Part shown: piece by piece, positions 211 through 59,479 of the stretch
Layout: each line of letters opens with the position of its first letter
Numbering within the stretch: position 1 is the stretch's first letter
NCBI GenBank assembly: GCA_964643325.1
Contig: CAZXSE010000007.1
Coordinates: forward strand, 1-60,137
DNA length: 60,137 nucleotides
Source of the DNA: an uncultured Planctomycetales bacterium
GTDB lineage: Bacteria; Omnitrophota; Gorgyraeia; Zapsychrales; Fredricksoniimonadaceae
Direction of reading: 5' to 3'
Made by a program: the position numbers and the translations under genes
The notes under the pieces: model-generated
What the model was told of the DNA's origin: nothing
Database searches by the model: none
The model's input: the letters and a program-made list of their open reading frames with translations, nothing else

Positions 211-1155
211 TCATTTTGCCCCTAACATCCATTTCTCATGCAGGAACGCCTCATGTTCCATCAACAACTCCATGTAATCCAGCTCCAGCGCGATCATCTC
301 CTCATCATTCTTACGCAGCCATTCCGACAGCCACGCAAAACGCAACGCCAGGACCAGGCCCTGGAAATGCTCCCAGCTCAATACTGAAGAAATGCCCGAC
401 GCCTTCAACCTCGCGATCAATGTAACAACAAGATCTCTCTCCAGGCTTGAAGGATGCTCCATGCCCAGGCAGCCGACCATGTTCGCCGCGTCATACAACT
501 CGGGCTTCAGGCCGCAAAACTCCCAGTCGATCACGACGCGGATATCCCTCTTCCCCCAAATAATATTGAGCGGATGATAATCCCCGTGACAAAAAGCAAG
601 CGGCAGCGCATCATACGCCGGCATAAAGCCTTTCTCAAGGAACTGAACAACCTTCTCAAGCCGCGGCATCAGATCGGGCCGGCGCTGACGAACCTGCGTC
701 AACAGCGTATAAATATATTTCTTGAGTGAAAAGGGGTGTTCTGCAACAGAGGCATCTATTCCGGCAGCAGCATTGCGCAAGGTGAGCAGAAAATCCGCAA
801 CTACATCCCCGCGCCACTGCTCGTACATATACGCGCTGCGGTCAAGGGCTTCGCCCGCGTAGAACGGTGCACACTGCCAAACACCACCGCCATGTTCTTT
901 CAGATGCCGGCCGTCAGCATCCGCGCAGTACAACGGGATCCTGCCCATGCCCGCGCGGACAAGGAACTGCAACGCATCGATGATCCTTTTCTTGACGGGA
1001 TACGCGCCGGACGGGACCTTCTCAAGGACATAATACTTCCCTGCCGCATCCTCGATCACGGCACGATAAGCCGTGCGCTCAGGGCTTCCCGCAGGCACCA
1101 ACCCGGGGCATTCCCTCTGAAAAGCAATGCCCCAAAGGCCCGCAACCTCTTTCAC
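211..1155 (-). CDS. Aminoglycoside phosphotransferase / homoserine kinase type II-like (APH fold) kinase
   Basis: HGDYHPLN (Brenner-type) and VIDWE motifs. Confidence 0.8.
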   Translation of the reverse strand: MKEVAGLWGIAFQRECPGLVPAGSPERTAYRAVIEDAAGKYYVLEKVPSGAYPVKKRIIDALQFLVRAGMGRIPLYCADADGRHLKEHGGGVWQCAPFYAGEALDRSAYMYEQWRGDVVADFLLTLRNAAAGIDASVAEHPFSLKKYIYTLLTQVRQRRPDLMPRLEKVVQFLEKGFMPAYDALPLAFCHGDYHPLNIIWGKRDIRVVIDWEFCGLKPELYDAANMVGCLGMEHPSSLERDLVVTLIARLKASGISSVLSWEHFQGLVLALRFAWLSEWLRKNDEEMIALELDYMELLMEHEAFLHEKWMLGAK

Positions 1156-16737: not shown

Positions 16738-16833
16738 AACGATCCTCCTGTTCCTTATATGTCCCCGAAAAGCATCCTGCCGTAATGGAAAAAATCCCCA
16801 TTTTTTTCGTTCTATGTTAGAATTTTTGCCGTT

Positions 16834-16905
16834 GTCCCCTTAGCTTAACGGATAAAGCACAAGCCTCCGGAGCTTGGGATGAGGGTTCGATTCCCCCAGG
16901 GGACG
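16834..16905 (+). tRNA. tRNA-Arg (anticodon CCG), CCA not encoded
   Basis: Acceptor stem GTCCCCT/AGGGGAC, anticodon arm CAAGC-CTCCGGA-GCTTG, T-loop TTCGATT. Confidence 0.95.
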
Positions 16906-16952
16906 TTTTTTCAGTATTCTACACAAATCATAGCTGAAAGCAATAAGAGCCT

Positions 16953-25329: not shown

Positions 25330-25578
25330 ATGTTTAAGACAATCACAGCGGTTACAGCGGCGGTCATGATCATCTCAGGAGCAGGTGCTGCCTGGGCAGA
25401 GGCAACGAGCTTCTCCATTTCGGTGACCATCCCCCCCATGATCTTCTTTGACCAGAAGGCGCTCGCGCCGGGCCAGGCGGTCCTTGATCAGCAGGGAGAT
25501 TCCCAGAAGAATATCCAACAGCAGGCTTTGGTCAGGGACAATAAGAAAGTCCTGATGACCTCTGCAGTCGTTCTGTAA
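25330..25578 (+). CDS. Small secreted protein with a pilin-type N-terminal strand (ATSFSISVTIP)
   Basis: Signal peptide ending AWA; RBS AAGGGAGG; 82 aa. Confidence 0.75.
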   Translation: MFKTITAVTAAVMIISGAGAAWAEATSFSISVTIPPMIFFDQKALAPGQAVLDQQGDSQKNIQQQALVRDNKKVLMTSAVVL

Positions 25579-25618: not shown

Positions 25619-25659
25619 GGCCCGGATCATCGCTAATAGAGATCCGGGCTTTCTTTTTT
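25619..25659 (+). terminator. Intrinsic terminator between convergent genes
   Basis: GGCCCGGATC...GATCCGGGCT followed by TTCTTTTTT. Confidence 0.75.
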
Positions 25660-25671
25660 CAACGGGAACTA

Positions 25672-28600
25672 TTATTCGGTGGGAGTTTTCTGCTGCATCG
25701 GGATATGAAAGACATACGTGACGCCTTCCGCCAGATCGATCTCAGTCTTGAGCTTGATCATGGGAATGAGCGCCAGCGGAACTGTTGCCATATCAATGGA
25801 AATAGTATGCTTGCCCGCATCGACCTTCTTGAAGAAATACGCGCCGCGCGCGTCCGTGAACTGGCTGGTCTTGCCATCAAGGATCAGTTTCACACGGGTG
25901 ATAAAAGTATCCCCCGGATCGGGGCGCCCGGTATCATTCCTGTCCACATAAACAACGCCAAAGATGCCCGACTGCGTGGTCAACCCGAAATCAACGCGGT
26001 CCCGCAGGCCCTGACGCACCTCCACCCGCTTGGATGACGGCGTCGAGAATGTATATCCGACGGGAAGGCCGTTCACATCAGGCGCAACGACCGCGCGTTT
26101 GGCGCGCACCTTTGCATTGTACCAGCCATTGGCATCCGTAACAGCCTGCCTGTCCCCCACCTTGACCTTAATGTCCGGCATGCCTTGATCGTCGCTATCC
26201 TGCTTGCCGTTGCCGTTCTTGTCCTTGAACACAACACCTTCGATCGTACCTTGCGGGTCCCAGGACCAGGGCGAACCCCATGCGGCGCGCATGCCCATGC
26301 GCAGATCAAGCGAGTGGTACGAAGCGTCCTCGGTCCTCTGACCCCACACATCGCGCAAGCGGCTGTCAAGAAAAAGGTCGACATCCTCGACGGGGCTGTA
26401 CACGAAAGAGGCTGAGCCTTCGACGCTGTCTTCGCCGGAAAGATAGCTGTTATTGCCCCCGTACCCGGCTTCATTCTGATAGGTCAAGCCGAAGTTCCCG
26501 TGCAGCCGTTTTGTCAACTGATGGCTATAGGAAAGGCCTGTGTTAAAGACATTGGGGTTATAATCCTCGTCCGTCTCAATATCTTCAAGCCATGAATATT
26601 CATAACTTGCCGAATAATAAAGATTCCCGACGAGAGGGATGTTGAACCCGGTCAAAAGCCCGTAACGGTCATACTCGGACTGCGGCGAGAACGCGTAGCG
26701 GCTGCTCTGATAGACGTGGCCGATATAGCCCGATCCGCTGCGGCCATTCCAGACAGGCAAGGTGCGGTGAAGCCGCATATCCGCCGAGAAATAGCGGCGG
26801 GGGGAAATATCCGCCGGCGTGTGCGTATAATATGTTCCCGTGCTCAGCGAATGCTTCTCGTCGAGCTCAATATCGACCCTGGCATTCGCATCATAATTGA
26901 ACGCGTTCGGGTCATCGGGGTTCAGGCTCAACCGGTCGCGATAAACATCAAGCGAGGCGTCTGTCTGCGCCTTGCCAACAGGCACCTGCATGGCCCACAA
27001 AGCCCCGACCTCTCCCTGATTCGACGGATATCCCGTGACCGTCGTGAACTCCTTGTTGATATCCCTCAGGTTCAGGCTCATGGTGCCCCGGCCAAAACCC
27101 CACTTCGACCCGGCCAAAGCCGCCGTGGTCTTCTCATCCTTGGCGATCTCGGCGTTGAGCCTCATCTGGTCAATGACCTGCCACCCCTCGACGGAATAAA
27201 CGCGCTTGGTCAAGGCATCATCCCGATCGGGGCCGGAACCCTGGGCATAATTGAACGCATACTGCCTGTTCTTGTCCTTGGGGAACAGGGTGATCTTCGC
27301 CGCATCAATATAGAAATCCTCTTTCCCGGAGCCGCTGCCCAGGATATAACCGAACGTGCTCCGTTTCTGCCCGCGCGTCAAGGCAAGCCCGAGATTCTCG
27401 TCAAGAAGGTTCACATCCACATACCCGCCGAACAGGGCCGTTCCCGGCAAGGTCAACGGGCTCAAGCGGCGGTTAATATCAAAAAGCCTTATATTCAGGT
27501 CTTTGGTCCCCTCGACCGGAATGCCGGTAAGCCCGACGGTATAGGACGTTACCTCGGTGATCGGATGATAACCGGTCATCGTGGCAGACCCGTCCAGAAG
27601 GCCGTAAGGGGTCTCGCCCACGGTCCCGACGCTTTGCTGATAACTGGGATGATCCCTGCGCTCCAGCCCGTCGATGCTCGGGCCATAATGATAAGAGCTC
27701 CAATCATTGGAGTAGCGGAACCTGAACGGGACCGAATGGTCCACGCCGGTATCGATCCGCGGGACGCCCACATCAGCCCGCGGAACGATCACATCAATAT
27801 AAACAGTGCTGCGCGCCGGGGCGCCTGTTGACTCGTCCCAAATATGAACAAAGGTCGATCCCCAGCGCAGGGTATCCACCTGGATCTGATCGCGCGTGAT
27901 CTTCTTGATGTTCACAACCCCTTCATCAACGATCAGGAACTTGTCGATGCTCTTGCCTTCAATAATAACAGAAGACCCCATCTCGATCTTGACCACAGCC
28001 CTGCTGCCCTGGGCCGCGTTCATGATATCATTCAGCGTGATCACATCAGGCACGGCTTTCTTGGCAAATGCCACCGAAGTCTTGGGCTTTTCAGATACGG
28101 GAACCGGTGTCTGGGCAACAACTTTGGCCGGTGCAGCCTTTGCAGGCGCTATTTTTACGGCCGTCGCTTTTGCAGGTGTCGTCTTAACGTTCACAGGCTC
28201 AGGGCTCTTGGGAAGAACGGGCTCTTTGCGAACAGCGGTCTTTTCCGGAACGACCGCCGTATCCTGCCTGATCTGCACAGTCGCCACCGGAGCCCCCTGC
28301 AAGCGCTCAAGCTGCGCCCAGGATTCAAGCAATCGAGGATCCTCAGGATCGATCAGGCGGGCTGTATTCAGGCTCTGACGCGCCGTCTCAAGGTCCTTGC
28401 GGGCCAGTGCTTCTTTGCCTTTACGCAACATCTCTTCAAAATAAGGCAATGTCACCCGCTCCATGGATACTTGCGCGGGAAGAGACTTCTTTCTGTTCGC
28501 AATAAGTTCAATATACCGGGCAGGTTCTTTCGAGGAGGGGTCTATCTGCTGGGCCCATTTAAAATAACGGGCAGCATCGTCATCCTGTTGCTTTTCAAAG

Positions 28601-28722
28601 GCTTTAGTACCTTCTTTAATACAGTATTGATAGACATTCGACGCGTCCGCGCCGGCCGAAGGGCAAGCCAACGCCGCGAATACGAGAAAAAGAAAAACTC
28701 CTGTTAAGTGCTTCATGGTCAT
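25672..28722 (-). CDS. 1016-aa usher-like outer-membrane protein: TPR-like helices, pilus-formation N-terminal-like domain, beta-barrel-like core, SdrD-B-like C-terminal domains
   Basis: Signal peptide; TPR-like ARYFKWAQQIDPSS and ARLIDPED; GSTFVHIWD segment; aromatic amphipathic strands; GTIEGVVFKDKNGNGKQD and GVVYVDRNDTGRPD. Confidence 0.65.
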   Translation of the reverse strand: MTMKHLTGVFLFLVFAALACPSAGADASNVYQYCIKEGTKAFEKQQDDDAARYFKWAQQIDPSSKEPARYIELIANRKKSLPAQVSMERVTLPYFEEMLRKGKEALARKDLETARQSLNTARLIDPEDPRLLESWAQLERLQGAPVATVQIRQDTAVVPEKTAVRKEPVLPKSPEPVNVKTTPAKATAVKIAPAKAAPAKVVAQTPVPVSEKPKTSVAFAKKAVPDVITLNDIMNAAQGSRAVVKIEMGSSVIIEGKSIDKFLIVDEGVVNIKKITRDQIQVDTLRWGSTFVHIWDESTGAPARSTVYIDVIVPRADVGVPRIDTGVDHSVPFRFRYSNDWSSYHYGPSIDGLERRDHPSYQQSVGTVGETPYGLLDGSATMTGYHPITEVTSYTVGLTGIPVEGTKDLNIRLFDINRRLSPLTLPGTALFGGYVDVNLLDENLGLALTRGQKRSTFGYILGSGSGKEDFYIDAAKITLFPKDKNRQYAFNYAQGSGPDRDDALTKRVYSVEGWQVIDQMRLNAEIAKDEKTTAALAGSKWGFGRGTMSLNLRDINKEFTTVTGYPSNQGEVGALWAMQVPVGKAQTDASLDVYRDRLSLNPDDPNAFNYDANARVDIELDEKHSLSTGTYYTHTPADISPRRYFSADMRLHRTLPVWNGRSGSGYIGHVYQSSRYAFSPQSEYDRYGLLTGFNIPLVGNLYYSASYEYSWLEDIETDEDYNPNVFNTGLSYSHQLTKRLHGNFGLTYQNEAGYGGNNSYLSGEDSVEGSASFVYSPVEDVDLFLDSRLRDVWGQRTEDASYHSLDLRMGMRAAWGSPWSWDPQGTIEGVVFKDKNGNGKQDSDDQGMPDIKVKVGDRQAVTDANGWYNAKVRAKRAVVAPDVNGLPVGYTFSTPSSKRVEVRQGLRDRVDFGLTTQSGIFGVVYVDRNDTGRPDPGDTFITRVKLILDGKTSQFTDARGAYFFKKVDAGKHTISIDMATVPLALIPMIKLKTEIDLAEGVTYVFHIPMQQKTPTE

Positions 28723-28767
28723 ATTGTCTGACCGGCCAGGAAAAAGACCCGCGCCGTGCCCCTGTTC

Positions 28768-29574
28768 CTAGTCCCGAACGCCTGTTATGTCGGCACTTCC
28801 GGAGGCATTCTTCGTGATCTCTATTTCCTTAACAAGAACATCCCCTCCTTCAAGGTCCGCGTTAAGAACAAATGTGTATTTGCCCGCCCCCAGATCAGCG
28901 GGAAGAGCAAGCTCAAAAGGCGCCGCCTCCCCGGGCGGAACATATACTTTCTTGACCGATCCCCGGTCCTTGACGCTGCCACCATCATCCATGGCGTAAT
29001 AAGTAATATCTGCGATAAGAACAGCGTCCCCCTGGTTGACAAAGCTCCCGTTAACAACCGCGCCGTTCATTTTGAAATCCTGCATTGCGCACGACTTGTC
29101 CTTATTCTGCGACTCAATGAAGAACAGGACCCCGGTGCGCATGACGATATTGACGCCCGTCTGGTCCTGCAGAAGATCCCCTGTCTTCTCAAAGAAAAGG
29201 ACCCCGTAATGCCCGCCCTTGATATCCTGCGGCACATTGATCAGGTACTGGATCTTCTCCTTGGCAAAGCCGGCCAAGGTGACCTCTTGCGGCGTGATCC
29301 TGACCCATTCGGCCGCCGAACCCGGCATGATCCCCGCCGGAGAGAAATCCTTGGCCCCGTCGTAAGGAGCTGTGTACTTGAAATCCTCCCAATACAGACG
29401 GTATGTCTCCGTGTTCTTGGAGAGATTGTGCACCATGATCTCGCCGCTCACGCGCTCGCCGGGAGCGACCGAAATAACAAGCTTGCCGTGCTCGATCATG
29501 AGCTCCGCCGATGCCGGCGGCAGCGCGCAAAAGAATAAAGCGATCAGGGCAACAACGATCTTTTTGATCATCAT
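28768..29574 (-). CDS. PapD/DUF916-like periplasmic chaperone
   Basis: Signal peptide; VAPGERVSGEIMVHN, SAAEWVRITPQEVTL, INVP...GGHYGVLFFE; second Ig-like domain ending GKYTFVL. Confidence 0.65.
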   Translation of the reverse strand: MMIKKIVVALIALFFCALPPASAELMIEHGKLVISVAPGERVSGEIMVHNLSKNTETYRLYWEDFKYTAPYDGAKDFSPAGIMPGSAAEWVRITPQEVTLAGFAKEKIQYLINVPQDIKGGHYGVLFFEKTGDLLQDQTGVNIVMRTGVLFFIESQNKDKSCAMQDFKMNGAVVNGSFVNQGDAVLIADITYYAMDDGGSVKDRGSVKKVYVPPGEAAPFELALPADLGAGKYTFVLNADLEGGDVLVKEIEITKNASGSADITGVRD

Positions 29575-29598
29575 ATGTCTTCTCTTTTCCTGCTTCTG

Positions 29599-30963
29599 TT
29601 AATTCTGGTTCAGCGAGAACCTTATCGGCGCTTTATAGCTTCCGCTGGGAAGCCCTTTATAACCCTGGACCCTGTACACCACATTGAATTTCACCGGTGC
29701 GCCCTTTTTATTGGAAACGAACACCGGATACTCGCCGGTCTTGACCGAGACAAAGTCCGTGAACTGCGATGCGGCCTTCTCGCCTTCGACAACGCCGACC
29801 TTCATCGTGAAATACTCCGGAGACATTTCGTCGCCTTTGGCATTGCGCATCAGGGTGCTTACCTGTTGCGTGACCTGATAGGGCTTGTGCATGTTCGACC
29901 GGACCACGACCTGCACCTCTTTCTCCATCGGAGGCTGGTCAGGAAGCACCTGCGTGAAACTGATGCCTTCCGGCGGGAACACCAGGTCCATGCTGAACAC
30001 CGGCTGGATATGGACCTGCAGATCGACCTGGAATACGCTTTCTTTATCATTCGCCACGACGATATACTTCACCCGGCCCATGTAAACACCGGCCTCTTCA
30101 AGCTCAGCCAATTCCTTGGCCATGGAGAAATATACCGCGAAATCATCCTGCTGTTCCTGGCTGGAATAAACAAGAACGCGGTCTTTCTTCAGCGGCTGCG
30201 GATCACGCACGCGCAGCGCTTCAAGGACCTTGCCATCGGCAACAAACCGTACAACATCAGCGCCGATCTCCCTGCCGTCCTCACCCTGGGGCAGGAACTC
30301 GACCTCCTGATACACCTGGACCTGCTGGCCCATGTTCCCCGAGAATGTCACCTTGACCGCATCCTCAAGGCTCGCCGTGGCCCCGGAATCACGAACGATC
30401 ACACGCTCCGGCATATGCCCGCCGGAAACCATGACCTTCCAGTCTGCCGTGCTTTCCAGGGACACATTCACAAAGACCTGGGTCGGCGCGCCGCCGGCAA
30501 TAGGACGCAAGGTGAAAACGATCTTTCCCGAAAAGATCCCGCTCGTATTCAACAGGTCCGGCCTCACCGCATACGCGATCCGGAAAGAATCGCTCTCTCC
30601 GTTCTGGCCTGATGTATAAACAAGCTGTTCGCTGAAACTCAAGTTATCCGCATTCTGAAGATATAATGTGCCTGCCGCGTTGGAAGAGCTCAGCGACGCA
30701 CATTCAATGACCTGAAGATCAAGGCGCTCGCCTCTTTCATTCACGATCGGCTCAATGACCTGCTGAAAGACCTGATAACGATTGCCGTCATCATTGGAAA
30801 CGCGCAGGCGCAGCTCCTGATTGTTCGCAAGACCCGAGATCACGCGGCCAAGACGCAAGGAACCGCTGCCGTCCGTCGCGGTAACGGCCAGGGATGCAGC
30901 CTGAGCCGCTCCTGCACAAAGAACAAAAACTGCAACGGTCAATATCCTGAACATTTCTTTCAT
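29599..30963 (-). CDS. Secreted protein with three tandem pilin/Ig-like repeats
   Basis: Signal peptide; repeat ends SGIFSGKIVFTL, AGVYMGRVKYIV, SGSYKAPIRFSL; recurring YQV.Q motif. Confidence 0.6.
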   Translation of the reverse strand: MKEMFRILTVAVFVLCAGAAQAASLAVTATDGSGSLRLGRVISGLANNQELRLRVSNDDGNRYQVFQQVIEPIVNERGERLDLQVIECASLSSSNAAGTLYLQNADNLSFSEQLVYTSGQNGESDSFRIAYAVRPDLLNTSGIFSGKIVFTLRPIAGGAPTQVFVNVSLESTADWKVMVSGGHMPERVIVRDSGATASLEDAVKVTFSGNMGQQVQVYQEVEFLPQGEDGREIGADVVRFVADGKVLEALRVRDPQPLKKDRVLVYSSQEQQDDFAVYFSMAKELAELEEAGVYMGRVKYIVVANDKESVFQVDLQVHIQPVFSMDLVFPPEGISFTQVLPDQPPMEKEVQVVVRSNMHKPYQVTQQVSTLMRNAKGDEMSPEYFTMKVGVVEGEKAASQFTDFVSVKTGEYPVFVSNKKGAPVKFNVVYRVQGYKGLPSGSYKAPIRFSLNQN

Positions 30964-31148
30964 AGGAAAGCACGCTTTCTATACAATCAATGCCGTTAGA
31001 TATATAAAAAAATAGAACCGCTAAGTTCTATTATATCGTCCGTTTTGTCTTTGCAACAAAAGAAAGTTGTTTTTTATACTTTTAACAATACTGCCACGGT
31101 GATCCTAAATGTAGTGCCGCGCGGCGATATCAAGCCTCGCAAGAAGCC

Positions 31149-31772
31149 TTATGATACGGTCGCCGTAACGGTCAAGGTCCCGGTATACGTTCCCGCTTTA
31201 TCGGAAGATGTGAATACCTCTGTATTATCAATGCCGTCGTCCGTTTTGGTAACGATCCCCAACTGAACGCGGAACCAGACACCCGGAATGGTCGTTGATC
31301 CAACGGTAATGCCGTTCGTATCACGCAATGCCCTGGTGCCCAGGTCGGTAATCGTGGTCGTGGTCGCGTCCACATACACAAGTTTCTGCAAAGTGGCGGC
31401 CACCTTATAACCAAGGCCGTGGCCCGCTCCGTTAGGATTCGCGCCTTCCGCGTAATTGAGCTTAACGACCAGGCCTGGCAATGTCCCGCTATTCGTGACA
31501 TCAATGGCAAAGCCCTGCGACGTCTTCCAGATGCCCAAACCGAGATCATATGTCAAATTGCCAAAACCAAGCGTCGTGTCCTCCGGGGTCCACACAGTGC
31601 CCGGGTGACCGGCCGCGTCATACTGGAACGCATTCGCGTTGATCGCAATGATGGCCGTACTGGGAAGAATGGTCTTTAAGTGCCGTATGTGTTTATACGT
31701 TCCCGCCAGCGCCGGGCCGCCCGTCGCCAACAAAAAAGCCATCATCATGAATGCCGCTATGGTTCTTTTCAT
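31149..31772 (-). CDS. Pilin-like secreted subunit C
   Basis: Signal peptide; ends DKAGTYTGTLTVTATVS; close paralog of 32354-32968. Confidence 0.7.
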   Translation of the reverse strand: MKRTIAAFMMMAFLLATGGPALAGTYKHIRHLKTILPSTAIIAINANAFQYDAAGHPGTVWTPEDTTLGFGNLTYDLGLGIWKTSQGFAIDVTNSGTLPGLVVKLNYAEGANPNGAGHGLGYKVAATLQKLVYVDATTTTITDLGTRALRDTNGITVGSTTIPGVWFRVQLGIVTKTDDGIDNTEVFTSSDKAGTYTGTLTVTATVS

Positions 31773-32344
31773 TTTGTCACCACTGTTATGGTCAGTGTGC
31801 CCTGATAAGTGCCGGCATGATCCGCATTAGTGAATACCTCAGCACCGCTGACAACAGGATCCCCTGTATAGATCCCGACATACATCTTGATGTTATGATC
31901 CGATGGTCTGTCCGGGATCGTCAATCCATTAACATTCCGGATCGCCCTCGCAGGCATGATATCAACCTCGGTCGTGCCGATAATATCCTTGAACGCGATC
32001 GCTGTCTTATAACCAAGACCGTGCCCGCTATATCCAGCTGTCGTGTTAGGATTCTCTCCCTCGGTGTATTCCAATGATACATCACCGTTGAGCGTAATAT
32101 AATACCCTTTGGATGCTATCCATATCCCATACTCGGGATTGAAACTCAATGTCCCGAAGTCCCATGTCAGATCAGTGTCTTTGACAGGACCCTGGCCGAT
32201 AATGCCTTCCTCTACAACACCGCCGTTGAAAACTTCCGGAACATCGGCTGTGACGATAAAGGTCTTGGCATCACCGGCCAGAGCCTGGCCTGCCTGTGCG
32301 GCTAAGAACACCACCATGACTATGAGGTTCAGTAGCATCCTCAT
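31769..32344 (-). CDS. Pilin-like secreted subunit B
   Basis: Signal peptide, KTFIVTADVP strand, GHGLGYK motif, ends DHAGTYQGTLTITVVTK. Confidence 0.7.
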   Translation of the reverse strand: MRMLLNLIVMVVFLAAQAGQALAGDAKTFIVTADVPEVFNGGVVEEGIIGQGPVKDTDLTWDFGTLSFNPEYGIWIASKGYYITLNGDVSLEYTEGENPNTTAGYSGHGLGYKTAIAFKDIIGTTEVDIMPARAIRNVNGLTIPDRPSDHNIKMYVGIYTGDPVVSGAEVFTNADHAGTYQGTLTITVVTK

Positions 32345-32353
32345 GATGTCACC

Positions 32354-32968
32354 TTATGATACGGTCGCCGTAACGGTTAACGTACCGGTATATGTACCTG
32401 CTTTATCCGTTGATGTGAACACTTCCGTATTCGCAACACCGTCATCCGTGTTCGTCACAACACCCAGCTGGACGCGGAACCATGTTCCGGCAACCGTCGT
32501 AGATCCGACCGTGATGCCGTTGGTATCCTTCAACGCCTTGACACCCAGCGAAGTGACCGTCGTTCCGGTCGAGCTGTAAACAAGCTTCAGCAACGTAGCC
32601 GCGACCTTATAACCAAGGCCATGGCCTGCCCCGTTGGGGTTCGTGCCTTCCGCGTAATTCAGCTTGACGACCAAGCCGGCCGCGGTGCCGTTGTTCGCCG
32701 CATCGATCGCGAAACCCTGCGCTGTCTTCCAGATACCCAGACCCGGATCATACGTCAGATTACCGAAGCCAAGTGTTGTATCTTCCGCGGTCCACACAGT
32801 ACCCGGGTTACCGGCCGCGTCATACTGGAACGCATTCGCATCGATCGCAATGATAGACGCACTCGGTAACGTTGTTGAAACAACGAACGCCTTCGAATCT
32901 GCCCAGGCGCCTCCCGCCTGAACCGCCAGCACGAAGCCAGCTACTATGAAACTGATTAACTTTTTCAT
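32354..32968 (-). CDS. Pilin-like secreted subunit A (probable major subunit)
   Basis: Strong RBS CAGGAGG before ATG 32968; KAFVVSTTLP strand; ends DKAGTYTGTLTVTATVS. Confidence 0.72.
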   Translation of the reverse strand: MKKLISFIVAGFVLAVQAGGAWADSKAFVVSTTLPSASIIAIDANAFQYDAAGNPGTVWTAEDTTLGFGNLTYDPGLGIWKTAQGFAIDAANNGTAAGLVVKLNYAEGTNPNGAGHGLGYKVAATLLKLVYSSTGTTVTSLGVKALKDTNGITVGSTTVAGTWFRVQLGVVTNTDDGVANTEVFTSTDKAGTYTGTLTVTATVS

Positions 32969-33486
32969 AACTACCTCCTGTTTTATTAACATTTTTGTTT
33001 TTCCTGGTTTGTACCTTTAAAATATAGCTTCAAAGCTAAAGATCGAGCTTTGTGAATTAGGGTGGCATCGCAGCATCGAAAATACCCGAAATCTGACTGG
33101 AATGCCGTATTGGTTATGCTATGACAACAGTAGATGGCACAAACATAACACACATGTCAAGGAATGACAAGGGCTACACAACCCCATTTTGGAAGTGTGA
33201 ATCATACCATAAAGGTGGAAGTTGTTGCAAGTACTTTAATTAGGGACAAAATAGCTGCGTTTCCCCGACGCAGAATATTTTTATAATAAACACCTGCTTT
33301 CCCTAATATAGCCAAATAGCTTTCCAGGGGCGTTTTACCCTGCCCAACCTATTGCGGTTGGTCATCCCCATATGCACTACATATAGTTCATCGTTTCTGG
33401 ACGAAAAAGGCTCTCTGGAACATATAAACAGCCCCCTGCAGCTATTGAGGCCACAGAGGGCTGTCAAGACTCTTCAAAGCACGATC

Positions 33487-52809: not shown

Positions 52810-55641
52810 TTACGCTGACTTGGGCGTCAATACCCCTTGTGCCTCGCTAAAGAGCGGCACGTTCGCCGCGGGTACGATCTGCAGGATCACGGGCACAAGC
52901 CCGTCGATCTTGATGTTATCAAGGTCCTGCTGATCCAAGGGTAACGGCACGCCACTGCCATCGCGCTTGATCTGCAGTTCCAGATTAGCGGAATTCATGT
53001 CGATACCACCAACATTATCATCCTGAGCAGCATCAGAACCGACGTTCTGCGCCATGTCATAGAAGTCTTCTACTGTTTTCACCTTACGGTCCAATTCACC
53101 TAAAATCCCTATGCTAAATTGGACTCCAATAGAAAAATCATTCATAAACTCTGAGAATTCTTTATCCTTCAATTTTAACCTGATCTCGCGGACTTTCTCA
53201 GCAAGAATCTTTGATCTTTCTAAATCACTTGCCGATTTTCCCTTGCTATCTTGTAATATATCCGCCACGATGCCTTTGATCAATTTGCTGCTCTCTCGAG
53301 CATATTTAATATACTTCTCATTTCCCACTAACATCTTCTTGGCAAAATCTTCACCGAGATAATAGACCAAATCATCTGCAGCTTTCTTAAAACCTCGCTC
53401 CTCCTTTTCGTCAAAAACTACTTTTTTAGCGATCACTCGGGTTTCACCCGAAATAGCATCAAAGATTTCGGTTCTAATCCTCTTAAGCAGGTTCCGCGCC
53501 CATAATACCTGCCAAGGCGGCCCTTTTATGCTCTTCATATTCCCGCTAACAATCGTTCGGATAAAATCACTGGGCGTCCAGTCTCCATCCTCTTTAAAGT
53601 CTCTCCATGCCATCTCTCTCATAAAGTCCGGACTATCAATCTTGCTGCAAAGCTCCACATGCAGATCCCTAAGCTTCCGAAGAAGATTCTGAAAATCTTC
53701 TGTCTGTAATTTCTTCAGATGCCCAACATTTATGCCGGACTTTCTTGAAATATCTGCTGCCAAGCCTTCTATAAATTTCTCCCAGCTGCTGGTGGTATCA
53801 ATGGCCTGTCGCGCCATCCCCTCCAATACGCCCTCTTTCGCTGATGCATATTGTTTCCAGAACATTCCGTCCATAAAGTCATTAACAGTAAGCTCACCAA
53901 AAGATTGATCTGTTAATTTTACCGTATTATCAAAATCTGCAAAATACATCAATATAGTCTCAACTTCATCTCGAACATGAACAAGATCGGTCTGAAATCT
54001 TTTCTGCCCCTGAACCGCTTCCATTACTTGAGCGAACTCTTCTGAAGAATAAGTTAAAAGATCTTTCTTGGATGCCTCAATTTTGTCGTAATAACCCTCA
54101 TTATTCAGGACCTGCGTTATTTTCTTGGCAAGATCTTTCCCTTCCTCCGACAAAGCAAGCCATAACAATTTAGCCTGTTGAAACTGAAGCTCGGTCCTTT
54201 CAATCTCCTTCTGCTGTTCTTCCGTCAATCCTGACATATTTATTCTTTTGTCCTCTGCAAACAAAAGGCTCTGCATATTACTATCAAAGTCTCCGAACAT
54301 TCCCTGCGCCATCACAGCAGTTTCCAGCAATACATTCATCGATTCTTGAACCTGTGGCTGCTCTGGACGATAATTCAACAAATAAAAACCCATCTCTCGC
54401 TTAAGACGAGGCGATATCTTGCCAAGTTTATCAGCAAGCGCTGACCCTTGGGGCATGGAGAAGATAGTATTCCTGTTCGTAACTTCTCGTCTTGAAACAG
54501 AGCTCTCTGAGTTATAGTGCTTCAAAAATGCGTTCACAAGATCCCGATCTCCCGACCCGCTCTGAGCCCTGGTAAGCCCTGCGGCGTCAGACGTCCTGAC
54601 GATCTGCGCCCGATCATATCCTTTCGTTCCCCCCGAGAAATACTTGCGGGGAATGATCTCCTGCGAATACGTATCCAAATCCTCGCGGATCATGTTAAAG
54701 ACGCCTTTCTTGAACGCCTGGACATACTGCTCATAAATGGTCTGGTTGTTCTTCGGGTCCTGATCAACACCCTTGACCTTGCCCTGATCCGCGTACAGTT
54801 TCCCGAGAATGGTCTCTTTGAGCGCCATCTTATACCAGGTGGCCAACAGCATGCCGCTGTAAACCTGACGCAGGGGCGCGAAATTCTTGCCTTCATTCAC
54901 TTCCTTCTCGATCGCCGGGATGATAACCTCGCGCATGACCTGTTTGGAGATCTTGACCGCCTCATTATCCTCGACAATGCCCGTTGCCAGCACATTGGCC
55001 TGCATGGACCGGTAATCGCTTTCCATCATGACCTTCAAATGGTTCTCCAGGACCACGACCGTATTGCCCTTTTCATAAACAACGGCCTTGTCAGGCGTGA
55101 TCCAAACCTTGTTAAAAGTATCGAGGGGGATATCGGTCGTACCAAATTTCTGATAGGCCTGCGCATAAACCCCGTCCCAAAACTTTTTACCCAGGTCCGT
55201 GTCAGGGTCGGTCAGCGATGCCGAGATCTGTTTCAAGAGATAATCCTGCGCCAGAAGGTCGCGCCCCATCTCGGTCAATCCAAAATTATCCGGCACAATA
55301 CGGTCCTGCTCATACGGAGATAAGTTCACCCACTGATCCGTATCGGGAACGGCCAATGACGCCAGAAAATACTTGATGAGCTTGGTATATTCCGCCTGCT
55401 TCTGATCATCGGTCATGGACGCATCACCGCGATGGATGATGAAATCAAACTTGAACGGCTCTGTCGGATGAATGACCATGCCTTGAAGGCTGGCAGGCGT
55501 AAATCCGGAACTTAACGCGACCGTAACGCCCGGTTCAGGCATGAGGCCCACAGCGGTCATGGCCTGGGCAAAACCCTGCGGAGGCATAGCACAGCTAAGA
55601 ACAAAGCTGACCAGAATGAAGAATGTCGTTATCTTTTTCAT
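52810..55641 (-). CDS. 943-aa modular secreted protein A (conserved N-module, AT-rich variable core, GGID C-module)
   Basis: Signal-like N-terminus; N- and C-modules align with 55892-59380. Confidence 0.88.
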   Translation of the reverse strand: MKKITTFFILVSFVLSCAMPPQGFAQAMTAVGLMPEPGVTVALSSGFTPASLQGMVIHPTEPFKFDFIIHRGDASMTDDQKQAEYTKLIKYFLASLAVPDTDQWVNLSPYEQDRIVPDNFGLTEMGRDLLAQDYLLKQISASLTDPDTDLGKKFWDGVYAQAYQKFGTTDIPLDTFNKVWITPDKAVVYEKGNTVVVLENHLKVMMESDYRSMQANVLATGIVEDNEAVKISKQVMREVIIPAIEKEVNEGKNFAPLRQVYSGMLLATWYKMALKETILGKLYADQGKVKGVDQDPKNNQTIYEQYVQAFKKGVFNMIREDLDTYSQEIIPRKYFSGGTKGYDRAQIVRTSDAAGLTRAQSGSGDRDLVNAFLKHYNSESSVSRREVTNRNTIFSMPQGSALADKLGKISPRLKREMGFYLLNYRPEQPQVQESMNVLLETAVMAQGMFGDFDSNMQSLLFAEDKRINMSGLTEEQQKEIERTELQFQQAKLLWLALSEEGKDLAKKITQVLNNEGYYDKIEASKKDLLTYSSEEFAQVMEAVQGQKRFQTDLVHVRDEVETILMYFADFDNTVKLTDQSFGELTVNDFMDGMFWKQYASAKEGVLEGMARQAIDTTSSWEKFIEGLAADISRKSGINVGHLKKLQTEDFQNLLRKLRDLHVELCSKIDSPDFMREMAWRDFKEDGDWTPSDFIRTIVSGNMKSIKGPPWQVLWARNLLKRIRTEIFDAISGETRVIAKKVVFDEKEERGFKKAADDLVYYLGEDFAKKMLVGNEKYIKYARESSKLIKGIVADILQDSKGKSASDLERSKILAEKVREIRLKLKDKEFSEFMNDFSIGVQFSIGILGELDRKVKTVEDFYDMAQNVGSDAAQDDNVGGIDMNSANLELQIKRDGSGVPLPLDQQDLDNIKIDGLVPVILQIVPAANVPLFSEAQGVLTPKSA

Positions 55642-55891: not shown

Positions 55892-58800
55892 TTAAAGTAC
55901 GCGGGAAGGAACAGCGGGGCGGATGTTCAAGATAACGGGCACAAGGCCGTCAATGCGGATACTCTCAAGGTCTTGCTGGTCAGCCGGCAACACAATACCA
56001 TTGCCATCGCGCTTGATCTGCAGGTCAAGCGCGGATACGTTCAGGTCAATACCGCCCTTGACGATCTCGGCCTTGTCAGAAAGTTCCGTCATATCGTCAC
56101 CGCGCTCTTTAAAGAACGTATATGTCTGGTGATAGATCCGGTCCAAACGGAACTGTTGCTCATCCTGCCTGTCCCCGTCGGAGAGCCCCTCGAAGAGGCC
56201 GAAATCGTCAAAAAAGGCATCTCCAAGAAGTTCTTGGCGCAGGGCAATGCTCCTGGGGTCCGTGGATCCCTGCCTCATCATTTCCTTAAGGTCCCCCATA
56301 AAATCACCCACATCCTGTTTTTCGATACCGGCAATCCGGATCGCAAAACTCCGGCCAGCGAGCTTTGCCAGGTCATCCCAGGACTTCTGATACGCAGACA
56401 CCGGAAGAAGCGAGGCGCGTCCGTGAAACAATGAATCCAGGCCGTCATCTATACCCTGCCCCATTCTTAAAACTTTATGTTGCGGTATCGGCGCCGGCAT
56501 AAGAACCTTGCCGATCTCATCGCGCAGGCGGTCAATGGTCTTAAAAGTCCGTGTCTGGTTGAAGACCATCTTCAGCATACGTTCGACCAGATCATCCTTT
56601 TCCTTATCCGACGCACCGGCAATATCGGCACGCCTCTTGCTTGCAAGCACCTGATCAATACTCAAGCGCGGATGGGTCAAGACATTCATTACAAGCTCGG
56701 TGAATTTCTCAAGACTGAAGCCAAGCTCGCGCAGGCGCACAACAACAGGCTCAAGTCCCGGAATGGTCTTAAGGCTGATCCTGAGCTCGGGCCTCAGATC
56801 ATCATGCCGCAGGCGCAGGTACACGACCTGCGCGCGATGACGCGCCTGAAGAGGATGCAAGGGGCCAAGAATATCCATGCTGGTGTAGGAAGATCCCGAA
56901 ACAACGGCCTTTCCGGGTTTACCCAGATACTCCAGTGCCAGCTCCGTCAGGACCTCTTCGATCTCCTCCGGCGCCGGCAATTTCTGGAACATAAGGCGCT
57001 TTAATTCCCTGATGAACTGCTCCTCCGCCGCCATTTCCTGCGCAAGGACTTCCGCCGCCGCAGGAACAATGGCCTTGCCGACCGGCAGATCAACATTCTC
57101 GATGGCAATGATGCGGTTCAGGTATCTGTCCACCACATCCGCGATCGCCTGGCGAAGAACAGTTGCCAGCTCCTTTGGCTCATCGATCTCCGCGAGCGTC
57201 ACTTGCTCCATGAACGATTTGCGGTACTCACCCCCTGTTTCCAGAAGAATATCCCGAAAAGTGGACCTGCTCCATGGCTCCTGCCAGATAATAGCCTCGT
57301 TGTTCTTGAGCCTGAAGAATCCGGCATACGCATCCAGCGCCTGCCGATAATGCGGATCAGTCATCAAAACCGTCCAAAATTGCGGCCCCAGATACAGAGG
57401 ATCAGGCCCATCATAAAAATCAACCACTGCCCGCTCGATATGGTCAAGGACCGGCTTGATCAGCACATCAAGTTCGGCCTTGCGGAATTGACGATGACAG
57501 GCGCCCAACAGGGCCGTCTTGATCACTTCCGGCATATCGGCAAGCGTTCCTGCATCTCTTGCAAAATAACCGTTGATCAGCGCCGACCTGCGGCGGTCTT
57601 CGACAAGCTCTTCCCATAACAAAGGATCCTGCCGACGAAGCCCCCGAGGGCCGTATTCCGCGACCTTCTGGAGCGCCGCTTCATACACAGGACTCAGGCG
57701 GCGGCGATAATCCTCGCGTGCCAGGCTAGCCACCAGGGCGGTCATGACCTTGTCAAGCAAGTCTGCCCTCAATTTACGCGAAGGGTCCTTGGCATCAAGC
57801 CGTGCCAGGCGCTCATGACTGAAATTCACCGGAAAACTGAAATCCCTGCTAGTGTCCACAGGATTGAATGACTGGGCCAGGCCGACATCTTCTTCAAAAT
57901 ACCTGCCATCCTCGTCAGACTGGTACATCTGAATAAGCCGGATCAACAGGTTCCGCCATTCTTCCGACAACAACGACCAGGCCTTGCTCGCCTGCCTGTA
58001 CTCCGCAACCTCATGACTGCCGTTCAGCCGCAGAAGTTCGGCGATCGCCTGCTTGAGCTCATTGCCAGTAGGCTTGAGACGATCATTATTCAGCGCCCAG
58101 ACCTTGATGAGCGCGGTAATGCTGTCAAGCGCCTCCTGCCTCAACTCGCTGTAAGGGCGACCGCCCAGACGGACGGTCCATCCGGACTTTAATTCAAGCT
58201 GTCTGTAAAAAACCTCCCACATGTCTTTCGGAACAAGGCCTTCCCCGACGGCTGCATCCGCTGTCGTCTCAGCCGCGTCCGACACGACCCGCGTGCTCAC
58301 AATATCAGCAGTATTCATCGCGGCATCTGCCCTTGCGGCTGAATCCGCATCAGACCTGACGACAACATTTTGCGCGCTGTCACCGACCATGCCGCCCGAG
58401 AAATACTTGCGGGCAACGGTCTTTTGCGTCGGAACATCAACTTCCTCTTTGATCATGTTAAAGACGCCCTGTTTGAACGTGCTCACATACTGCTCGTAGA
58501 TCTTCTGATTGTTCGCCGGGTCCTGATCAACCCCCGCAACTTTGCCCTTGTCCGCATAAAGCTTTCCAAGGATTGACTCTTTCAAGGCCATTTTGTACCA
58601 GACAGCCAGCAGCATGCCGCTATAAACCTGGCGTAACGGCGCAAAATTCCTGCCCTCGTTCACTTCCTTCTCGATGGCCGGAATGATGACCTCGCGCATA
58701 ACATCTTGTGTCACGTCAGACTGCGGCGATGTTCCGCCGCCAACTCGCTGTGCCCGTTGATCAGCGGCTACGCGATCCGCGTCCATCATGACCTTCAAAT

Positions 58801-59380
58801 GATGCTCGATGATAACAGCCGTGTTCCCTTGCTCATGGATCACAGCGCTGTCCGGCATGATCCACACCTTGTTGAATGTGTCCGTCGGGATATCCGTTGT
58901 GCCGAACTTCTCATACGCCTGCGCGTAAACACTGTCCCAGAACTTTTTGCCAAGATCCGTGTCAGGATTGGTCAGCGATGCCGAGATCTGTTTCAGAAGA
59001 TAGTCCTGGCTCAAAAGATCACGTCCCATTTCAGTGCGGCCAAAAGTTTCCGGGATCATGCGGTCCTGTTCGTAAGGCGAAAGATTCACCCACTGCTCAT
59101 CCTCGGCAACGGCCAGCGATGTCAGGAAATACTTAATAAGCCGAATATATTCAGCCTGTTTCTGATCTTCAGTCAAAGGCGTGTTGCCACGATGGACAAT
59201 AAAATCGAACTTGAAAGGATCATTGGGGTCAACGGTCATGCCCTGGAGCATAGCAGGCGTGAATGCGGCGCTTAACCCCGGCTGAACGCTGGCCGTCATG
59301 CCCTGGGCAAGGCCTTGCGGCGGCATGACACAGCCGAGGATGAAACTGATAAGAATTAAGAATGTTGTCAACTTTCGCAC
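55892..59380 (-). CDS. ~1160-aa modular secreted protein B (paralog of A with an unrelated core)
   Basis: Start placed at GTG 59380 by alignment (MRKLTTFLIL vs MKKITTFFIL); same N- and C-modules. Confidence 0.88.
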   Translation of the reverse strand: MRKLTTFLILISFILGCVMPPQGLAQGMTASVQPGLSAAFTPAMLQGMTVDPNDPFKFDFIVHRGNTPLTEDQKQAEYIRLIKYFLTSLAVAEDEQWVNLSPYEQDRMIPETFGRTEMGRDLLSQDYLLKQISASLTNPDTDLGKKFWDSVYAQAYEKFGTTDIPTDTFNKVWIMPDSAVIHEQGNTAVIIEHHLKVMMDADRVAADQRAQRVGGGTSPQSDVTQDVMREVIIPAIEKEVNEGRNFAPLRQVYSGMLLAVWYKMALKESILGKLYADKGKVAGVDQDPANNQKIYEQYVSTFKQGVFNMIKEEVDVPTQKTVARKYFSGGMVGDSAQNVVVRSDADSAARADAAMNTADIVSTRVVSDAAETTADAAVGEGLVPKDMWEVFYRQLELKSGWTVRLGGRPYSELRQEALDSITALIKVWALNNDRLKPTGNELKQAIAELLRLNGSHEVAEYRQASKAWSLLSEEWRNLLIRLIQMYQSDEDGRYFEEDVGLAQSFNPVDTSRDFSFPVNFSHERLARLDAKDPSRKLRADLLDKVMTALVASLAREDYRRRLSPVYEAALQKVAEYGPRGLRRQDPLLWEELVEDRRRSALINGYFARDAGTLADMPEVIKTALLGACHRQFRKAELDVLIKPVLDHIERAVVDFYDGPDPLYLGPQFWTVLMTDPHYRQALDAYAGFFRLKNNEAIIWQEPWSRSTFRDILLETGGEYRKSFMEQVTLAEIDEPKELATVLRQAIADVVDRYLNRIIAIENVDLPVGKAIVPAAAEVLAQEMAAEEQFIRELKRLMFQKLPAPEEIEEVLTELALEYLGKPGKAVVSGSSYTSMDILGPLHPLQARHRAQVVYLRLRHDDLRPELRISLKTIPGLEPVVVRLRELGFSLEKFTELVMNVLTHPRLSIDQVLASKRRADIAGASDKEKDDLVERMLKMVFNQTRTFKTIDRLRDEIGKVLMPAPIPQHKVLRMGQGIDDGLDSLFHGRASLLPVSAYQKSWDDLAKLAGRSFAIRIAGIEKQDVGDFMGDLKEMMRQGSTDPRSIALRQELLGDAFFDDFGLFEGLSDGDRQDEQQFRLDRIYHQTYTFFKERGDDMTELSDKAEIVKGGIDLNVSALDLQIKRDGNGIVLPADQQDLESIRIDGLVPVILNIRPAVPSRVL

Positions 59381-59479
59381 GACAACCAACTTCTAATAAG
59401 ACTACTTTTGTTAATAATGCCCCACCTTTGACAAATATACCCTATAAAAAGCCAAAAAACACCCCCATGGACAAAAAAA

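Follow-up and report, generated by a model that had tools for sequence, protein, structure and literature searches.

The window analysed here, the whole stretch of 60,137 nucleotides from contig CAZXSE010000007.1 (assembly GCA_964643325.1, deposited as an uncultured Planctomycetales bacterium), carries a locus of seven genes, A to G, for secreted proteins. We read it, with a probability of about 0.55, as the locus of a donor-strand-exchange surface fibre built by a chaperone-usher-like route. Three small subunits (pilins A, B and C), a triple-repeat subunit (D), a chaperone candidate (E) and an outer-membrane candidate (F) follow each other in this order. A preliminary description of the same DNA, made from the letters alone, had reported six such co-oriented genes between 25672 and 32968, and all six open reading frames (ORFs) are indeed present on the minus strand. 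A dedicated locus of secreted proteins is consistent with the surface fibre proposed there. The locus is a conserved operon restricted to Omnitrophota.

Conservation of the locus was analysed by scanning one genome per GTDB species with an alignment of F. This gave 24 loci, the ORFs of which were then searched with hidden Markov models (HMMs); the best F identity between the window and these loci is 48%. All of them come from metagenome-assembled genomes (MAGs) of Candidatus Omnitrophota/Omnitrophica, 6 being titled ‘uncultured Planctomycetales’. The order D, one or two pilins, E, F is kept in about 20 of the 24, which is the outcome of the synteny survey that the preliminary description had suggested, and because the module recurs in this order its organisation is far beyond chance. 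In every case E is conserved together with F and lies just upstream of it, and nearly every locus (about 20) has one copy of D, with a pilin gene or E as the next gene downstream. The window and one other locus (L012) have three pilin genes ahead of D. The genes flanking the module differ from locus to locus. Downstream of F, the window and locus L025 have genes for YgiQ (69% identity) and ABC-F (84%) in common, arranged alike. This synteny and the relatives of the module place the lineage in Omnitrophota, for which host-dependent or predatory lifestyles have been proposed (PMC10066038), in line with the lifestyle suspected at first. The families are narrow. Single-sequence searches of 5.8 billion proteins returned just 7 relatives of the pilins and 3 homologues of F, and the E family comprised 327 clusters at 90% identity by profile. 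An exhaustive HMMER search of 1.84 billion representatives with the core of F gave 277 clusters at 50% identity, of which 230 lie below 1e-10, and the best 150 clusters were all strong full-length members. Because the exhaustive search yields these 277 clusters, F is taken as a closed family, which stays separate from the very large family of ushers.

The two ends of the pilins and their predicted fold point to donor-strand subunits. The terminal strand read at first sight stands: the C-termini of A, B and C have the form GTY[TQ]GTLT[VI]T (A and C as GTYTGTLTVTATVS, B as GTYQGTLTITVVTK), with G191, Y193 and G195 invariant among 33 homologues. In the family alignment the mature N-terminus is a conserved motif with alternating hydrophobic residues, x-T-F-T-V-S-A-T-V-P; in pilin A this candidate donor strand, DSKAFVVSTTLPSA, comes directly after the signal peptide. 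An AlphaFold2 (AF2) model of pilin A, built from 8 sequences, has a mean predicted local distance difference test score (pLDDT) of 73.8 and a predicted template modelling score (pTM) of 0.70. When it was compared with the PDB by Foldseek, five matches reached an E-value of 0.001 or below, four CfaB chains and CS17 (8ehs). The chains of the CfaB trimer 4y2l have E-values of 3.5e-5 to 5.8e-5, a probability of 1.0 and a target template modelling (TM) score of 0.43; since the TM-scores are modest, the result is taken as an assignment of fold class and not as proof of homology. The next matches were CooA, the TasA fibre 8aur (2e-3), PsaA and the archaeal bundling pilus 7ueg. Donor-strand complementation joins the subunits in all the structures named, and the resemblance of the small subunits to alternate chaperone-usher pilins, formerly suspected from the terminal strand, gains from CfaB and CS17 being the only matches at that threshold. 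The final strand of the pilins also aligns with that of CfaB (AGTYTGTLTV and AGNYSGVVSL), nothing else aligning at the sequence level, and the N-terminal strands are alike by eye (TFTVSATVP, and NITVTASVDP in CfaB). Sequence and profile searches of the PDB with the pilins returned no relatives. Among the three, B is a paralogue that has diverged to about 36% identity with A and is matched by the pilin HMM at 4.8e-72, and C is 73–75% identical to A. The N-terminal strand of C is charged (KHIRHLKTILP, against KAFVVSTTLP in A), with an arginine in the first hydrophobic donor position. Pilin C may be a specialised subunit, for example an adaptor or a terminator, beyond a mere variant of the major pilin.

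Protein E is predicted to be a periplasmic protein of two Ig-like domains. Judged from its sequence, it probably belongs, very distantly, to the PapD-like chaperone superfamily and comes closest to the EcpB type. It had been described as chaperone-like, and its closest similarity is indeed to the alternate-pathway chaperone EcpB. In a profile search of 177,635 PDB sequences, EcpB (5dfk) was the best match, with an E-value of 0.051 for a 23-sequence profile and 0.2 for a 65-sequence profile. By hhalign, E aligned with EcpB alone at a score of 44.7 (probability 88%), the maximum of 40 shuffles being 17.7. With a set of 8 EcpB-like chaperones, drawn from plasmids plus E. coli K-12, the score was 35.8 (51%), as compared with 15.6 for the reversed, 15.2 ± 2.8 for column-shuffled and 20.8 ± 2.2 (maximum 28.7) for block-shuffled controls. 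The scores are 6–7 standard deviations above the shuffles, and domain 1 and the beginning of domain 2 align collinearly. The alignment was mapped on the functional residues of EcpB defined by Pakharukova et al. 2015 (PMC4654587), with the numbering checked. E keeps the invariant kink proline P60 (P95 in E, at least 90% conserved), the donor residues A111/A113/A115/I117 (V141/I143/M145/T147), R116 (R146, invariant), Tyr169 (Y211, invariant) and the N-x-G-N with which domain 2 begins and which EcpE and CfaA also have (V-N-Q-G-N-V in E). The candidate donor strand of E is V141-x-I143-x-M145-R146-T147-G148, in which R146-x-G148 is invariant. Five homologues of E have been named ‘P pilus assembly chaperone PapD’ by the Joint Genome Institute (JGI) pipeline.

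A second family comes into view in the Pfam results for the 23 E members. fn3_5 matched 17 of them, WxLIP_PGBD 6 (best 9.5e-4, over domain 1) and WxLIP_HBD 3, and all the WxLIP matches are below the Pfam gathering score of 27.3 bits. According to PMC10599100, the WxL-interacting proteins (WxLIPs) of Firmicutes consist of two perpendicular Ig-like domains, and AF2 predicts that a WxLIP strand is inserted into WxL proteins and completes their sandwich; the paper's text contains neither ‘pilus’ nor ‘chaperone’. By analogy, this strand insertion is the same principle as that of chaperone-usher chaperones, and the weak matches of E hint at a common origin. On these grounds the locus could encode a non-fibrous surface complex like the WxL/WxLIP clusters of Firmicutes, in which E would hold monomeric A to C and D by a strand and F would anchor or export them. 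We consider this unlikely. Not only do the WxLIP matches stay under the gathering score, but E ends without a hydrophobic or transmembrane C-terminal helix and the subunit alignment has no Trp-x-Leu motifs. Foldseek favours polymerising pilins, and the conserved N-terminal strand of the pilins, shared with G, suits a polymerising subunit and would be needless for a monomer held by E. Of the WxL resemblance noted at first, a faint part remains in the 6 of 23 E homologues with a weak match to a WxLIP domain. The C-terminal G-T-Y-x-G-T-L-T of the subunits may resemble WxL-type terminal strands.

Protein F is the candidate for the outer-membrane component (domains in Table 1). Ushers consist of an N-terminal domain, a 24-strand barrel with a plug, and two C-terminal domains. 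After an extension by tetratricopeptide repeats (TPR) and a linker, F has an N-domain, a 505-residue core and two beta-sandwiches, which is the order of the usher parts at similar sizes, as judged from Pfam matches and segment lengths. Pfam was run on 72 F members (21 + 51). T2SS-T3SS_pil_N matched 20 of the 21 (best 9.4e-9) and 44 of the 51, the best value overall being 6e-10, and the C-terminal transthyretin-like pair matched SdrD_B in 21 of the 21 and CarboxypepD_reg in 19. The pil_N domain also matches the N-domain structure of an RcpA-type (Tad) secretin (8jvb, E-value 0.0029), and the TPR module is PilF/PilW-like; neither the Pfam tables of the 72 members nor the PDB matches listed contain a Secretin family. 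The core has no Pfam or PDB relative. It is composed of 10% G, 9% S, 8% D and 7% Y with no Cys, and in the alignment it is a series of amphipathic strands of 10–12 residues, linked alternately by 3-residue turns and loops of 10–15 residues. Towards its end, the strand YYSASYEYSWL and a 12-residue loop are followed by the strand VFNTGLSYSHQL, the turn TKR, the strand LHGNFGLTYQNE and a 15-residue loop, and then by the strand VEGSASFVYSP, the turn VED, the strand VDLFLDSRLRDVW, a loop and the strand SLDLRMGMRAAW, and the core terminates in D-L-R-M-G-M-R-A-A-W. Such a pattern of strands and turns suggests an outer-membrane barrel.

A large barrel would also be expected of an outer-membrane uptake system (SusC/TonB-like), fed by beta-sandwich binding proteins, and the products might otherwise form an S-layer or sheath. 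CarboxypepD_reg-like domains are found in SusC-type receptors as well as in F, and there is a weak match to the S-layer protein VapA (E-value 0.038). However, these domains are C-terminal in F and N-terminal in SusC, no TonB-dependent receptor, plug or SusD family was matched, and the genes flanking the module are housekeeping and variable. With no plug, TonB-dependent-receptor or S-layer family match, both readings were dropped as highly improbable.

Protein D agrees with its former description as a triple-repeat subunit. It has three tandem, beta-rich repeats of about 145 residues each, with hhalign probabilities of 95% (D1-D2), 96% (D1-D3) and 65% (D2-D3). Each repeat closes with a strand G-x-[FY]-x-G/A-x-[IV]-x-[FY]-x-[LV], which is reminiscent of the pilin C-terminus, and D is without the pilin-type N-terminal motif. 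No relatives of D were found in Pfam or the PDB. By analogy, D is a candidate tip subunit or adhesin.

The seventh gene, G, had been missed. It directly follows F downstream, on the other strand, and phmmer found an equivalent ORF at the same position and in the same orientation in at least 16 loci. The gene has a Shine-Dalgarno sequence (GGGAGG) and a terminator of its own. Its product has an N-terminal strand SFSISVTIPP, a Q-rich linker and a hairpin-like C-terminus, QQQALVRDNKKVLMTSAVVL. The family alignment gives [ST]-F-x-[LIV]-S-V-T-[IL]-P-x-H-[VI] for the N-terminus, then a Q/N-rich linker, and Q-x-Q-x-h-x-R-N-N-K-x-I-x-L-T-S-I-V-V-P for the C-terminus. In this N-terminal strand G has the motif with which the mature pilins begin, and the pilin HMM matches the G protein of locus L011 at 8.2e-5. 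These strands make G a candidate for a nucleator or terminator that consists of a donor strand only.

Several results weigh against a fibre of chaperone-usher type, and they concern each of the main components. For E, PapD_N and PapD_C had no match in the 23 members at an E-value of 1 or below, the similarity to EcpB is sub-threshold by HMMER, and the richer EcpB profile gave no gain, the probability going from 88% to 51%. hhalign of E with FimC and CfaA gave no similarity, and the same was found for EcpE. The carboxylate-anchoring Arg89 of EcpB is not kept and is replaced by a conserved glycine, G124. Arg89/Arg90 is super-conserved in archaic and alternative chaperones (CsuC, EcpB, CfaA) and, with Tyr169, anchors the C-terminal carboxylate of the subunit (PMC4654587). 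E has a nearly invariant lysine at mature position 8 (K31). Classical chaperones have R8 there, with a role in anchoring the subunit carboxylate, and by analogy K31 might substitute for the missing arginine anchor. For the pilins, no fimbrial model of Pfam or NCBIfam was matched, the sole match being a sub-threshold one of B to DUF1102 (E-value 0.027), and no similarity to EcpA was detectable. hhalign showed no relationship of the pilins to the D repeats, nor any to E and F. The other four AF2 models of A had pLDDT values of 54–62, and its Foldseek TM-scores are low, 0.33–0.44. D gave hhalign probabilities of 3% or below with EcpD and CfaE, as it did with FimH, and with its three repeats it does not correspond to a tip adhesin of the two-domain CfaE/CooD type or of the EcpD type.

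The remaining points concern F. Usher, PapC_N and PapC_C had no match in the 72 members, and its only specific periplasmic homology is to the N-domains of Tad secretins. An AF2 model from 4 sequences had a pLDDT of 36.5, and Foldseek recognised just its TPR. In a mean-field direct coupling analysis of 116 F homologues, summed along antiparallel ladders, the antiparallel signal was not above the parallel control, and counting of amphipathic beta-moments did not separate F from soluble beta-sandwich controls. By hhalign, F reached 3.6% at most with FimD, EcpC and CfaC singly. With a six-member EcpC/CfaC usher family the score was 38.6 (probability 14%), the reversed control giving 29.7 and block shuffles 23.9 ± 3.1. 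As the reversed control is nearly as high, the signal may be one of generic barrel-like composition; the excess over the controls is compatible either with extremely remote usher homology or with shared barrel-like composition. A single F homologue matches CooC_C (E-value 0.018). F is thus not established as an usher, given the lack of Usher or PapC matches and a profile-profile probability of at most 14% with the EcpC/CfaC profile, nor as a beta-barrel, given the low pLDDT of its model. The remark that none of the genes looks like a standard PapC, FimD or PapD was correct, the Pfam and NCBIfam models for fimbrial, PapD and usher proteins being unmatched by every gene.

Two other readings draw on these results. 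First, the locus could encode a chaperone-independent donor-strand fibre of the TasA/tafi type in a diderm, in which the pilins would self-polymerise once G had nucleated them with a donor strand. F would then serve only as an export channel, and E, as an Ig-like protein, would have a structural or anchoring role and not that of a chaperone. The TasA fibre 8aur has the top query-normalised TM-score with pilin A (0.37, E-value 2e-3), and the archaeal bundling pilus 7ueg was matched as well. Members of DUF1102, the family weakly matched by pilin B, have been proposed as archaeal donor-strand fimbrins (PMC11821415). G resembles a donor-strand-only protein, and E is without an Arg89 equivalent. 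On the other side, the significant Foldseek matches are chaperone-usher pilins and not TasA, E is always upstream of F and has a fimbrial chaperone as its best PDB match, and no SipW-type signal peptidase or camelysin domain was found in or near the loci. Furthermore, pilins in the periplasm of a diderm would need guarding against premature polymerisation. This fibre type is therefore an improbable explanation in our view. Second, F may have an origin of its own. It is possible, if doubtful, that F is not a diverged usher but an independently evolved outer-membrane platform, made up of a pilotin-like TPR module, a Tad-secretin N-domain and a novel barrel, in which case the locus would be a new phylum-restricted pilus pathway with an EcpB-like chaperone and G. 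If F is independent, chaperone-usher, TasA-type and WxL/WxLIP systems would be linked by a common ancestor of the kind ‘strand-donating Ig-protein plus incomplete beta-sandwich’.

For the chaperone-usher-like fibre, which we prefer, we infer the following route, including the localisation of each protein and the barrel of F. Sec would export all seven products across the inner membrane. In the periplasm, E would bind newly exported pilins, with its strand V141/I143/M145/T147, beside R146-x-G148, inserted in the open groove of the pilin. F would reside in the outer membrane, where its periplasmic TPR and secretin-N-like domains would recruit complexes of chaperone and subunit. Its beta-rich core of 500 residues would be the pore, and the two C-terminal beta-sandwiches would act like the C-terminal domains of ushers. 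D consists of three beta-sandwich repeats in tandem and lacks an N-terminal strand of the pilin type, and would for that reason enter first and form the tip. A, B and C would polymerise next. The N-terminal strand of the incoming pilin, x-F-x-V-S-A-T-V-P, would displace the chaperone strand in the previous subunit and be placed beside the C-terminal G-T-Y-x-G-T-L-T-V-T strand of that subunit. G, with its pilin-like N-terminal strand and short C-terminal hairpin, would start or cap the polymer.

Table 1. Genes and transcription signals of the locus (positions in the window) and domains of protein F (residues).
Feature	Position	Strand	Remarks
Pilin A	32354-32968	-	204 aa
Pilin B	31769-32344	-	191 aa
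Pilin C	31149-31772	-	207 aa
D	29599-30963	-	454 aa
E	28768-29574	-	268 aa
F	25672-28722	-	1016 aa
G	25330-25578	+	82 aa, mature about 58 aa; convergent with F
Terminator of G	25619-25659		Hairpin + T
AT-rich hairpin + U7	31004-31035	-	Inside the 185-nt C-D gap; RNA fold
Two sigma-70-like promoter matches	33142-33230	-	Upstream of pilin A; consensus matches only
Strong terminator	33427-33465		Ends upstream symporter gene; pilin A promoter matches sit downstream of it
F, signal peptide	1-25
F, TPR	26-145
F, Ala/Pro-rich linker	146-227
F, T2SS-T3SS_pil_N	228-320
F, beta-rich core	321-826		Putative barrel
F, transthyretin-like domains	827-916 and 917-1016

The genes A to F are separated by 9, −4, 185, 24 and 45 nucleotides, the start of C overlapping B by 4 nucleotides. 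Pilin A starts with the ATG at 32968, which has AGGAGG 6 nucleotides upstream and agrees with the end coordinate of the preliminary description; the mechanical ORF began at 32992. By eye, the N-termini of all the proteins read as Sec-like signal sequences, basic, hydrophobic and of the AxA type. The mature parts had been said to be free of cysteines, which is true of A, B and C but not of D, E and F, which have one each (C88, C162 and C34, respectively). Lipoprotein status was considered for E and F and rejected, the cysteines of their signal regions (C16, C20) being without a canonical lipobox and unconserved in the family alignments. The signal-region cysteine is missing from most G homologues. 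The hairpin between C and D, which the preliminary description had also missed, was left unflagged by the consensus terminator scan because that scan demanded 3 G-C pairs; it is a candidate partial terminator, which may keep pilin transcripts in excess.

The genes around the locus in the window are housekeeping genes: ABC-F, YgiQ-type radical SAM, sodium:solute symporter, RlmL, PEPCK and CarB. In 6 loci (L008, L012, L017, L024, L025 and L029) a sensor-kinase-like protein of 425–710 residues is encoded near the module, within about 5 kb on either side but mostly upstream, and 4 of the 6 have a response regulator too. These recurring neighbours suggest two-component control; the window is without a sensor kinase/response regulator pair adjoining the locus. 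The only tRNA gene of the window, a tRNA-Arg (CCG) at 16833-16906, is unrelated to the locus. At 52810-55641 and 55892-59389, on the minus strand, adjacent genes encode large proteins of 943 and 1165 residues with no Pfam match at 1e-5, in the part of the window lowest in GC content (0.47–0.49). Both match a 1141-residue protein of L018 at 48–55% identity over about 375–400 residues, and they may be paralogous surface proteins.

Several of the related loci have features of their own. In four of them an additional, larger pilin-like gene (249–521 residues) lies upstream of D (L024, 1771-3276; L030, 2861-4426; L021, 6099-6902; L023, 6175-6924), and these may be fused or decorated pilins. The MAG BWOrgControl_Nextera26_MAG2 holds two intact copies of the module (L016 and L029). 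Another MAG, MFD01476.bin.2.120, has an intact copy (L026) and a second one split into many short ORFs (L028, 7631-12889), which is either pseudogenised or the result of frameshift errors of long reads. On a contig of one Omnitrophota MAG, the homologue closest to pilin A among those named (40% identity; L001, 10001-10642) is encoded beside a response regulator and a GGDEF protein, with no D, E or F within 10 kb upstream or within the 2.3 kb downstream to the contig end, and may be an orphan gene. Six loci (L010, L013, L014, L015, L018 and L020) come from the MAGs titled ‘uncultured Planctomycetales bacterium’. Their module proteins fall inside the Omnitrophota family, and the titles may reflect the taxonomy of the submitters and not a true second phylum.

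Outside Proteobacteria, chaperone-usher pili are hardly known, apart from archaic forms in a few other phyla. If our reading is true, donor-strand-exchange pili would be extended into the Planctomycetes-Verrucomicrobia-Chlamydiae (PVC) group, and the locus would be a very distant reference point for the origin of chaperones and ushers. Omnitrophota are uncultured, mostly ultra-small and proposed to be host-dependent or predatory, and the attachment candidates named in their main genome survey are type IV and Tad pili and giant ORFs/proteins only (PMC10066038). Full-text literature searches found no paper that links Omnitrophota/Omnitrophica with chaperone-usher pili. The locus would add a testable adhesion organelle to the biology of this phylum. 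Apart from accessory domains, E and F have no match among the curated Pfam/NCBIfam families, and for D, G and the pilins there is no match at all; new models could be made for all five families.

The system would work in the manner of a chaperone-usher pilus but is not to be filed as a member of that pathway, because a recognisable usher and the anchoring arginine of the chaperone were both looked for and not found. Among the known systems, the common pilus of E. coli (ECP, ecpA-B-C-D-E) is composed in a similar manner, with a major pilin of small size, a second subunit that is large and multi-domain (EcpD of 547 residues, D of 454), a periplasmic chaperone and a large outer-membrane protein. 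EcpB is the best match of E among solved structures and shares with it the kink proline, the R-x-G donor motif, the equivalent of Tyr169 and N-x-G-N. However, A to C have no detectable similarity to EcpA, D none to EcpD and F none to EcpC, and E is without the Arg89 equivalent and the disulphide of EcpB. A second chaperone is missing from the Omnitrophota locus, F has TPR and secretin-N-like domains that are not found in ushers, G has no counterpart in ECP, and the hosts of ECP are Proteobacteria. The class 5 fimbriae of enterotoxigenic E. coli (CFA/I, cfaABCE; CS1; CS17) provide the top Foldseek matches of pilin A (CfaB, CS17 and CooA) and resemble it in the N-terminal donor-strand and C-terminal strand motifs, and one F homologue weakly matches the C-terminal domain of CooC. 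In contrast, sequence and profile searches of the pilins find only the terminal strand in them, and no similarity was found between E and CfaA, F and CfaC, or D and CfaE.

Outside the chaperone-usher pathway, the TasA/TapA fibres of Bacillus and the archaeal bundling pili and tafi also consist of beta-sandwich subunits joined by donor-strand exchange, as proposed here, and TasA (8aur) is among the Foldseek matches. Their nucleators, TapA and TafC, supply the first donor strand, which parallels the role proposed for G. Unlike the Omnitrophota locus, these systems are without a chaperone and an outer-membrane component, and they have a dedicated SipW-type peptidase; no match to the Pfam families of Peptidase_M73, camelysin or TasA was found at the locus, no peptidase gene lies in the loci or recurs beside them, and F is always present. 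The WxL/WxLIP (DUF916-DUF3324) clusters of Lactobacillales have a partner of two Ig-like domains that is predicted by AF2 to complete a small beta-sandwich, as set out in PMC10599100, and E matches it weakly. They are cell-wall complexes of monoderms with a membrane-anchored WxLIP and no outer-membrane protein, their WxL motifs are absent from A to C, and polymerisation is not raised in the passages of that paper that were consulted. Finally, the Tad/Flp system differs in that F is without a secretin domain and the locus without genes for a Tad ATPase, a platform or a Flp pilin. What F has in common with it is the ‘pilus formation protein N-terminal’ domain of the secretin RcpA/CpaC, together with a PilF/PilW-like TPR module, the TPR pilotin being represented by TadD in that system.

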